Positions 36,001 to 37,998 of a stretch of DNA of 37,998 nucleotides are shown here, one piece after another. The stretch is from a virus. Lineage: Duplodnaviria; Heunggongvirae; Uroviricota; Caudoviricetes. A program made the position numbers. Each line of letters opens with the position of its first letter. Positions within the stretch are counted from its first letter, which is position 1. The stretch lies in the IMG/VR virus record IMGVR_UViG_2526164630_000037, one strand, 5' to 3'.

Positions 36001-37998
36001 ATATCCTGCTGGCAACTGGCGCAAGCTCTGCATCCACGAACAGCCAGGCGTCGCCGCTCATCTATCGGATCGCCACACTCGCAACAATGAGTAGCAGATG
36101 GGGCATTACTATCGGATTTGTATTTTTGCAGGGAGAGATTGCGCTGCAATTCTTCGATTTCAGCGGCGTTGTCGATGATATCTGCCATTTTCCTTTCCTT
36201 CAGGCATGAAAAAAGGAGCCGAAGCTCCTTTGGTTTTAGAATTCGAATTGCCTTGCCCGCAGGCTTTTCAGCATTGGTCTGGCCCGCTGAACTACGAAAC
36301 TCGACTGGTCAAGCCGTGCCGCCTCTCTCAGTAGCACATCTCTGTTCTTCGTCACCATGTAGATGGTCTCAAACGCAATGTCATACAGCTTGTTCGTGTA
36401 TGAGGAGTTCAGCTCTTTCATGATCGGATACAGGTGTTTGCTGAGGTCCTGGGCTTTTTCCATCCAGAGTTGCATGTAGCAGAGGAGGATGATTTCCTCG
36501 TCTGTGAATTGTTGCTGTGGTTCTGCTTGTGCCGACTGCATGTTGCGAAGTTTCTTTTCGCACTCGATGAAGTATCTGCGTATCTGTCGGCCTTTTTCGT
36601 TACGCTCTACCATCGCCGTTTCTTTGGCTGTATCGAGGGTAAGGTGGTAGTCTTTTTTCCCTCGCCCATAACCTATTTCCCGTTTCTGGGAAATAGCTAT
36701 ATAGTCCTGATTTTCAACGAATCCGTACTCTTCAATACGTTCTGTAATCCACGATGCAAAGCGTTTACCTACTCCAAGAAAAGTATGTAAATCACGGGCA
36801 TTAACGAGAAGAGTGGTTTCGTTGGCGATAGTGCCGTTGAATACGGGGATGAGTTGACTGGTCATGATGACCTCCTTATTTGTTTAGTTTATAACCGCCA
36901 GTTAGTAGCTGGCGGTCGGGTGTCAACTGAGCCAAATAAGAAGCTCTGGGCATATTCCCCTTGCGGGTGTTGTATTACGCCTCTCCACCCGACCTTTGTA
37001 CGGATGTAACTATGCCAAATTGCAGGCATAAAAAAGCCGCAAAGCTATCGGGTGCGGAGACCGCTTATTTGTTCAGTGCGGTCAGTATGCGATAGCTCTG
37101 GAGGATTTGTCAATCAGCGGAATATTGATGAACGGGTAACGGTAAATGCCTCATCCAGAAAATTAACGCAAATTCGCATCGCAAACTTGCGTTAATTATC
37201 TGAAATATCAAGTTAAATCCCCTTAAATGTTTGGGGCACTATTGGGGCAAAATGTGGTTGTTTGGGGCATATTTGGGGCAAAAAAGAACGTATAAAGAAC
37301 GGTGTAAAATTGATTTCTTCATGGTCAAAATGAGGTGTAACAGATTGAAAAATATATGCTCTTGGACGATCTTCGGTAATTCTGTGTTTTTAATGCTTCA
37401 TGGTTTCAATATGTCCGTACATGGAATAATAAAGCACCAGAACTTTAGCCATTTCTAACCACTCCTCGTGTTATCTCTATTCCGTAGCGATTCGCTACCA
37501 CTTATTTAAAGATAAGACGTCCTTTTCAGAGTGCAAATTTCACAACCACTTATTTGATTTATAACAACTTTCACAAGCACGTAATTTTGTCGCAAAATGA
37601 CACATTTTTATCTCATCGCGTTTTTTTAATCATAAGAGCGGCTTATGGATAATTATTTGAGATGATATCTATTCTCGCTAAGAAGCTGTTGCAGGATATT
37701 ACCAAACGCGGGTCTGCCCGCGTCAGTTCACTAAGCTTAGTCCCACGTAGCGAAAATATGGCAGCCGCCATACGCCGCGTTAATTCTATGCAATATGATG
37801 TCTATACCCAGACGGAGGTCAGTAATGGCAAACCATCGAGGCGGTTCCGGCAATTTTGCAGAAGACCGCGAAAGAGCATCAGAAGCAGGTAAAAAAGGTG
37901 GACAGCACAGCGGGGGTAATTTCAAGAATGACCCGCAGCGCGCATCTGAAGCAGGTAAAAAAGGTGGCAAGAGCAGTCACGGCAAAAGCGACAACTAG

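Follow-up and report, generated by a model that had tools for sequence, protein, structure and literature searches.

Four copies of the octamer TTGGGGCA, found near the right end of the caudoviral record IMGVR_UViG_2526164630_000037 (37,998 bp, hereafter the window), are very probably arm-type sites on which the tyrosine integrase (Int) of Sp5/933W docks through its N-terminal domain, as judged from sequence comparison. The right-end segment that we tested is 100% identical to the Shiga toxin 2 (Stx2) prophage VT2-Sakai/Sp5 of Escherichia coli O157:H7 (AP000422), and the window ends in host genes, a 5' fragment of wrbA on the - strand followed by ymdF. The sites are helically phased, they are present on both arms of the phage attachment site (attP), and they are conserved with the Int family.

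The four exact copies described in an earlier note on this DNA start at 37231, 37242, 37262 and 37273 on the + strand (start spacing 11/20/11), and no further exact copy was found on either strand of the whole 37,998 bp. Their number alone is unremarkable (1.8 expected; four reached in 13 of 100 shuffles); it is their clustering that is exceptional, at least three TGGGGCA inside 60 bp occurring in 0 of 2,000 first-order Markov simulations of the window. A repeat search recovered the two near-identical units announced in the note at about 23 bp, here of 25 nt each (37228-37252 and 37259-37283), 88% identical and 31 bp apart, and Tandem Repeats Finder made no call on the repeats because there are just two imperfect 31-bp units. 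Since the crossover is at 37403-37409, the repeats lie 123-172 bp away from it: the proximity to the junction stands, and the earlier figures of 115-165 bp have to be replaced. The segment between the AntA/AntB-family gene (36236-36865, - strand) and the junction is free of protein genes, as had been stated, but an Rfam match to sRNA-Xcc1 lies inside it; over the repeats themselves Rfam gave no RNA family, its sole match being this one, 240 bp off. The features of the array and of the junction are as follows.

37121..37409, + strand: phage-derived P arm of attP within attR, a block common to all wrbA-targeting phages by alignment.
37228..37283, + strand: two 25-nt repeat units with a 31-bp period, 'arrangement g, region III' in the GenBank records of Sato et al.; the copy-number unit.
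37231..37238, + strand: predicted arm-type site, distal pair, copy 1; exact TTGGGGCA; kept in all wrbA-type relatives.
37242..37249, + strand: predicted arm-type site, distal pair, copy 2; exact TTGGGGCA; pair consensus of the family TGGGGCA-t-nn-a-TGGGgCA-aa.
37262..37269, + strand: predicted arm-type site, core-proximal pair, copy 1; core distance fixed in 4-, 6- and 8-copy relatives.
37273..37280, + strand: predicted arm-type site, core-proximal pair, copy 2; starts 130 bp before the crossover.
37396..37414, + strand: attR core, with phage half-site CTTCATG, overlap GTTTCAA (37403-37409) and bacterial half-site TATGTCC.
37403..37452, - strand: wrbA 5' fragment cut by the insertion, start codon 37450-37452, as read from the sequence.

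The crossover is the 7-bp GTTTCAA, annotated in three independent GenBank records (AP000422, AP004402 and AP005153). The alignment of attP with attR diverges directly after this overlap, wrbA is annotated across the junction in AP000422 and is intact in uninterrupted genomes, and similarity among wrbA-targeting phages stops sharply just upstream of 37121. The core half-sites CTTCATG and CATGTCT are unlike the TGGGGCA arm motif. The other prophage end, where the note had advised looking for the octamer, does carry it: the attL of AP000422 holds a pair at 625-643, with the same orientation and 11-bp phasing, 70 bp from the left-end core (555-561). The intact attP of Stx2 phage I, of the 933W type (AP004402), reads six TTGGGGCA, 130 bp, GTTTCAA, 70 bp and TTGGGGCAcgtCTGGGGCA, and in this record the P' pair TTGGGGCAcgtCTGGGGCA is contained in the final codons of int; this gene is read in the direction of the core and has xis upstream of it. 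A repeated motif distinct from the core-type sequence is thereby found on both attP arms, as four to eight P copies and a P' pair, and all arm sites have a single orientation. Across the 4-, 6- and 8-copy variants the proximal site keeps its start 130 bp ahead of the overlap, and the P' pair stays 70 bp beyond; 200 bp separate the proximal P site from the first P' site in the intact attP. Spacings of 11 bp (one turn), 31 bp (three turns) and about 200 bp (about 19 turns) come close to whole numbers of turns and place the sites on one face of the helix. The two-arm layout was obtained in 0 of 20,000 random 450-mers.

The sites are kept in all the wrbA-targeting phages examined, namely 933W, the Morioka Stx1 and Stx2 phages, Min27, phi367, phi191, the O104:H4 phage P13374, TL-2011c and Stx1a phages; distal pair copy 1 reads TTGGGGCG in the Oslovirus lineage. 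P-arm copies number four in Sakai/Sp5 and most genomes, six in 933W, Stx2 phage I, 86-24, Xuzhou21 and FRIK804, and eight in Min27. The extra 31-bp units, one in 933W and Stx2 phage I and two in Min27, are added distal to the fixed proximal pair, at a spot that GenBank annotators flagged as a variable repeat ('arrangement g/gg, region III'). The arm is present in 216 of 5,426 complete E. coli genomes, and an evenly spaced sample of 60 of those comprised 53 of four-copy length, six at +31 bp and one at +10 bp. Five att-arm matches fall in plasmid-class records, including NZ_CP133131 (63,329 bp) and NZ_CP074792 (154,743 bp); the 63-kb record is phage-sized, and an Stx phage genome that had excised and circularized could have been assembled here as a replicon. 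In phi191, two arm sites show single-G losses (TTTGGGCA; L005 1975-1992) and int is split into 'DUF3596' and 'integrase' coding sequences (2143-3455), which indicates either a homopolymer sequencing error or a decaying recombination module.

As the wrbA-type relatives are too alike, we used more distant Int homologues, retrieved by tblastn with Int at 69% to 27% identity, and these supply the evidence that decides most. All the related prophages that we examined have the motif, the most remote with an Int only 31% identical, so that the absence from relatives named earlier as a possible refutation was not encountered: in relatives at 31-69%, each arm carries TGGGRCA pairs, one or two in number, with GTTCCCA as the motif in phiCTX. 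Around the intact attP of five phages with a mid-genome int, CharmingMan (Int 69% identical), Klebsiella RCIP0034 and Mulock (about 65%), Enterobacter CobraSix (62%) and Providencia 117lys (53%), TGGGGCA is the commonest 7-mer and forms 11-bp pairs on both arms. Nine enterobacterial attPs have both arms in one record, and in these the intra-pair distance is always 11 bp and the arm-to-arm distance 196-200 bp. Where compared, the cores differ in sequence among relatives that keep the heptamer and the geometry, for example at yecE-like flanks and ttcA. Both pairs are present in Gifsy-2 (Int 61%), and Rac (Int 44%) has a P' pair and four P-arm sites spaced 11/19/11, against 11/20/11 in Sp5. LC567821 (Int 68%) has TGGGGCA-N4-TGGGACA on both arms, with the same variant in the same site of the pair, and the IMG/VR contig L085 has an A/T variant on both arms; the arms therefore covary. 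Of 80 IMG/VR Int loci, 78 have TGGGRCA-N4-TGGGRCA at the corresponding position; of the other two, one is a truncated contig and one a one-base variant. The most remote case, Pseudomonas phage phiCTX (Int 31%), has GTTCCCA pairs of 11 bp on each side of its annotated core and just these two in its 35.6-kb genome. One contig, L093 (IMGVR_UViG_3300045988_080850, 2700-2760), runs from the int 3' end through one TGCCCCA pair directly into the distal-arm flank of RCIP0034, and looks like the product of a deletion of about 200 bp between two direct arm pairs, with loss of the core.

In keeping with the group of integrases that share Pfam family PF12167 (Rac IntR, Gifsy-2 and phiCTX), Sp5 has an 11-bp-phased direct pair immediately past the conserved ...MLNxxL codons of int, and the consensus of 24 distinct pairs is TGGGGCA-t-nn-a-TGGGgCA-aa. 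The intragenic P' copies sit in different frames (xxT GCC CCA and xTG CCC CAx), and the Int tail around them is hypervariable in sequence and length, with C-to-T variants that change A to V and P to S. Rac Int is shorter at its end and its stop codon precedes the pair, and the phiCTX pair comes after the int terminator. Coding constraint does not explain the intragenic pair, because the Rac and phiCTX pairs are non-coding, and the constraint acts on the DNA and not on the protein.

The cognate Int (444 aa) has an Arm-DNA-bind_2 domain (PF12167, DUF3596) at residues 15-78 (E 6.3e-26; 90.6 bits against a cutoff of 22) and a tyrosine-recombinase catalytic domain behind it, a design expected to need arm-type sites. 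The same N-terminal family is present in Rac IntR, Gifsy-2 Int and phiCTX Int (E 9e-21 for phiCTX). In the four closest relatives that do not target wrbA, the Int N-domain is 74-75% identical, the rest of Int 62-68% and Xis 49-56%, and in most relatives no other component of the module is as well conserved as the N-domain. The recombination directionality factor (RDF) encoded beside int is an excisionase of the YdaQ/XisR type, 36% identical to Rac XisR.

Several points weigh against assigning the repeats to the Int N-domain. PDB searches by sequence and by profile gave no solved homologue of this domain, and hhalign of its profile against the N-terminus of P2 Int gave no similarity (probability 0.35%, 6 columns); because of this lack of detectable profile similarity, the parallel with P2 drawn below is functional, with homology unproven. 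The wrbA-type relatives are 83-100% alike, which leaves the motif inseparable from its flanks. The core distance of 123-172 bp would require DNA bends, and IHF-like matches are no more numerous than in shuffled sequences. A cooperative contact of Xis with the arm sites is possible. Finally, our search of the accessible literature brought up no study of binding, footprints or mutants for Sp5/933W Int.

The best-surviving alternative, which we nevertheless consider improbable, is that the RDF of the YdaQ/XisR type, in place of Int, binds the repeats, which would then correspond to X1 and X2 of the lambda P arm. Lambda Xis does bind on the int-distal arm, where these direct repeats lie, but sites of the X1/X2 type would be restricted to a single arm, and the motif occurs on both. 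A homologous Xis is found beside int in all enterobacterial relatives with the motif, but Xis is 49-56% conserved against a nearly invariant motif, and a more variable 11-bp repeat at 37283-37301 makes a better Xis candidate. Moreover, phiCTX keeps the paired layout, and neither tblastn nor a hidden Markov model search over all open reading frames (ORFs) of its genome detected a YdaQ-type Xis. A 294-bp Rac attR fragment is bound by XisR (PMC4632033), and electrophoretic mobility shift assays (EMSA) of that study have XisR shifting the probe AttR but not AttM (PMC4632033). By primer mapping, AttM corresponds to 669-959 of the K-12 record L096 and holds all four Rac repeats (805-852), and the shifted AttR adds the core and host flank. 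As AttM is unshifted though it holds the four repeats, these are insufficient for XisR binding in Rac, a homologous system that bears on Sp5 indirectly. The proposal of the earlier note, arm-type sites for Int or Xis, is thus supported on comparative grounds, with Int favoured by the sites on both arms, the conservation of the N-domain, the Rac XisR EMSA and the Xis-less phiCTX.

We give still less credit to the idea that a phage regulator with no part in recombination reads the repeats as operators or promoter elements, whether of the neighbouring antirepressor gene or of some transcript not yet annotated. The repeats lie upstream of ant (- strand), with an sRNA-Xcc1-like element and a promoter-like site (37113-37084, - strand) between them and the gene, but the motif travels with int-attP beside unrelated genes (hok/gef, dinI, tail fibre, and cos in phiCTX) and is also found inside int on the other arm. 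A promoter had been named in the note as the alternative that would overturn it, and our promoter and terminator scan gave no sigma-70-like promoter, promoter-like hexamers or terminator over the repeats, the hexamers being absent from both strands. Depositors annotated an ORF beginning in the repeats, but it crosses the crossover and would differ between phage and prophage. This 75-aa ORF (37231-37458, + strand) has a TTG start within the first repeat and a counterpart annotated as ORF-43/B44 in AP004402 and AP005153; because it spans the crossover, we rejected it as a gene, which it most likely is not.

A neutral, functionless minisatellite born of replication slippage would account for copy numbers of 4, 6 and 8 in whole 31-bp units among near-identical phages, but it is strongly disfavoured and barely credible, as heptamer, phasing, orientation and core distance are kept down to 31% Int identity in otherwise unalignable DNA, on both arms, and the simulations gave 0 matches. 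That a nucleoid protein of the host, such as IHF or Fis, reads the sites in place of a phage protein is just as hard to credit: the A-tracts after each second site (GGGGCAAAA) suggest intrinsic bending, but the G-rich heptamer fits neither the IHF nor the Fis consensus, and it is the lineage of Int, not the host, that the motif follows, being GTTCCCA in phiCTX and TGTGGACA in P2.

With the four sites taken as arm-type sites for Int, the following mechanism can be proposed. The four sites would form the P arm of attP, the int-distal one, and would be found in attR after integration into wrbA. The fifth and sixth sites (TTGGGGCA-N3-CTGGGGCA) would constitute the P' arm, 70 bp past the core at the int 3' end, in attL and outside the window. 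By analogy with lambda and P2, each Int protomer would place its N-domain (PF12167) on an arm site and its C-terminal domains on a core-type site flanking GTTTCAA, and bends between arm and core, probably including an IHF site near 37338-37350, would fold the arms back to build the intasome. Xis would possibly act on the two AAAGAACG copies at 37283-37301, and in the prophage the four attR sites would act in excision together with the attL pair. Binding by Int, the respective roles of the sites in integration and excision, and the accessory sites are what we infer from this comparison. The candidate accessory elements are the following.

37283..37301, + strand: two copies of AAAGAACG, 11 bp apart and 100% identical, core-ward of the proximal pair; candidate Xis sites, with low confidence.
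37338..37350, - strand: IHF-like TTTCAATCTGTTA, differing from WATCAANNNNTTR at one position; a candidate for bending the DNA between arm sites and core.
37358..37376, + strand: conserved element GCTCTTGGACGATCTTCGG, of which GCTCTTGGACGATC is 37358-37371; accessory-site candidate.

Similar 11-bp-phased repeats stand at the same relative place in Gifsy-2 (AAGTTCGT, two copies) and in LC567821 (AAATTCGT/AAGTTCAT); the assignment of the two AAAGAACG copies to Xis, made with low confidence, would fit a sequence that varies as Xis does (49-56% identity). The element GATCGTCCAAGAGC, in int sense, is found about 30-45 bp from differing cores in 933W-type, Klebsiella, Enterobacter, Gifsy-2 and LC567821 sequences (window; L011, L012, L013, L101 and L103), and is probably a site for a shared accessory factor.

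Other features of the same region were noted. The left core half-site has a direct copy (CTTCATGGT) at 37317-37325, 79 bp upstream of the genuine half-site, and at 37340-37350, within the IHF-like site, TTTCAATcTGT nearly repeats the overlap and right half-site in inverted orientation; both could be extra core-type Int sites or chance. An inverted repeat at 37156-37202 (CAGAAAATTAACGCAAATTCGC / GCAAACTTGCGTTAATTATCTG; 22-nt arms, 86% complementary, 3-nt spacer) lies within the attP-conserved block, 30-75 bp outside the arm sites, and differs in Oslovirus-type phages by two changes, one symmetric (G-C to A-T) and one on a single side; it could form a hairpin in RNA or be a palindrome bound by a protein. 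The sRNA-Xcc1 match (RF02221) covers 36906-36994 on the - strand at full length, with 69.1 bits against a gathering threshold of 53 (E 4e-12). It belongs to the leader just ahead of the antirepressor gene, and part of it coincides with a strong hairpin (ACCGCCAG...CTGGCGGT, about 36896-36918) that directly precedes the ant ribosome-binding site, the promoter-like site being the one at 37113-37084; this element may be a regulatory RNA for ant. At attL (AP000422 540-585; L016 2800-2850), the int stop codon shares bases with an ATG (AAATGA), and the frame that starts there, MINHILRHVETMARA..., is in phase with the 3' part of wrbA and runs on into it. The prophage may thus provide a WrbA variant with a replacement N-terminus and translational coupling, as in the report for Rac and ttcA.

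Arm-type sites are textbook knowledge, and their presence beside the att core of a heterobivalent integrase is expected, so that no existing idea is overturned. We found no description of these sites for 933W/Sp5 and no family-wide rule in our search, older subscription literature lying outside it. The present map is the first explicit functional attP map that we found for the wrbA-targeting Stx phages (933W, Sp5/VT2-Sakai and the O104:H4 outbreak phage), and comprises six predicted arm sites in Sp5 (up to 10 in relatives), the 7-bp overlap and candidate IHF and Xis sites. For the PF12167 group it yields a rule, one TGGGRCA-N4-TGGGRCA pair per arm with 196-200 bp from arm to arm in enterobacterial members, which can serve in locating attP boundaries, in telling intact from damaged recombination modules, and in designing minimal attP fragments, either for integration vectors or to cure Stx prophages. 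The part with real surprise potential is the 4/6/8 polymorphism, a concrete candidate for differences in prophage stability. It is conceivable, if rather doubtful, that the number of P-arm sites, changing in three-turn steps, tunes intasome assembly and so sets the readiness of Stx prophages for integration and excision; if true, copy number would affect prophage stability, transfer and perhaps toxin-phage output across O157 lineages. A related possibility is that int expression responds to occupancy by Int of the P' pair inside its own ORF.

Among known systems, P2 is the closest that is experimentally defined, with footprint-based protein_bind features in NC_001895 (Int P arm, IHF, core, Cox and Int P' arm). 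The arm consensus of P2-type Int is tgTGGaCa (PMC3448106), and the P2 arm sequences TGTGGTCaatgTGTGGACg and TGTGGACActgTGTGGACA hold direct TGTGGWC pairs of 11 bp on each arm. Like Sp5, P2 has two direct repeats per arm in one orientation and a P' pair overlapping the int 3' end; its IHF site lies between P arm and core, where Sp5 has the IHF-like candidate, and its octamer TGTGGACA resembles the TTGGGGCA/aTGGGACA of the Sp5 group. P2 differs in its Int (337 aa, to which Pfam assigns PF24624 and PF00589 only, the first 56 residues not being PF12167), in arms much closer to the core (163 bp from arm to arm, against 200 bp in Sp5 and 162 bp in phiCTX), in its RDF (Cox, against a YdaQ/XisR-type Xis) and in having one P-arm pair, against two in Sp5 and three or four in its relatives. 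We rejected a classification of Sp5 Int as P2-type, given the absence of similarity in hhalign and an RDF that is not of the Cox/Apl type. By its sequence, Sp5 is to be placed in the PF12167 group with Rac IntR, Gifsy-2 Int and phiCTX Int, and would work like P2.

The lambda attP has the arm-type sites P1, P2 and P'1-P'3, for the N-domain of Int, and its further proteins are IHF, Xis and Fis. Lambda Int is a heterobivalent tyrosine integrase whose arm sites, distinct from the core sites, lie on both arms of an attP with a 7-bp overlap, and lambda int adjoins the P' arm, so that the P arm lands in attR. Sites on both arms, a 7-bp overlap and int beside the P' arm are shared with Sp5. The lambda arm motif is C/AAGTCACTAT; Sp5 has another, predicted arm motif and another N-domain Pfam family, and it differs further by its strict 11-bp pairs and longer P arm.

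Within the group itself, phiCTX resembles Sp5 in its PF12167 Int and in a core flanked left and right by an 11-bp direct pair, both pairs having one orientation, in a region labelled 'R1, R2 repeats' in the AB008550 record. This P2-like Pseudomonas myovirus differs by the GTTCCCA motif, the 162-bp arm-to-arm distance, a non-coding P' pair and the lack of a YdaQ-type Xis. Rac is like Sp5 in its homologous Int (44%) and Xis (36%), in four P-arm sites about 100 bp from the core and in a P' pair beside int, and differs by its target ttcA, its non-coding P' pair and more degenerate sites (GGTGGCA, AGGGGCA). The Rac study described XisR binding to long probes only and did not define arm sites (PMC4632033). 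For the IntS-TorI system of KplE1/HK620, experiments placed the arm-type P' sites in attL, where they coincide in part with the region of the integrase gene (PMC2951348), a location shared with the P' sites of Sp5. The KplE1/HK620 sites, in contrast, overlap the int promoter, leading to autoregulation, and have the motif TAAA, with another gene orientation and another RDF.

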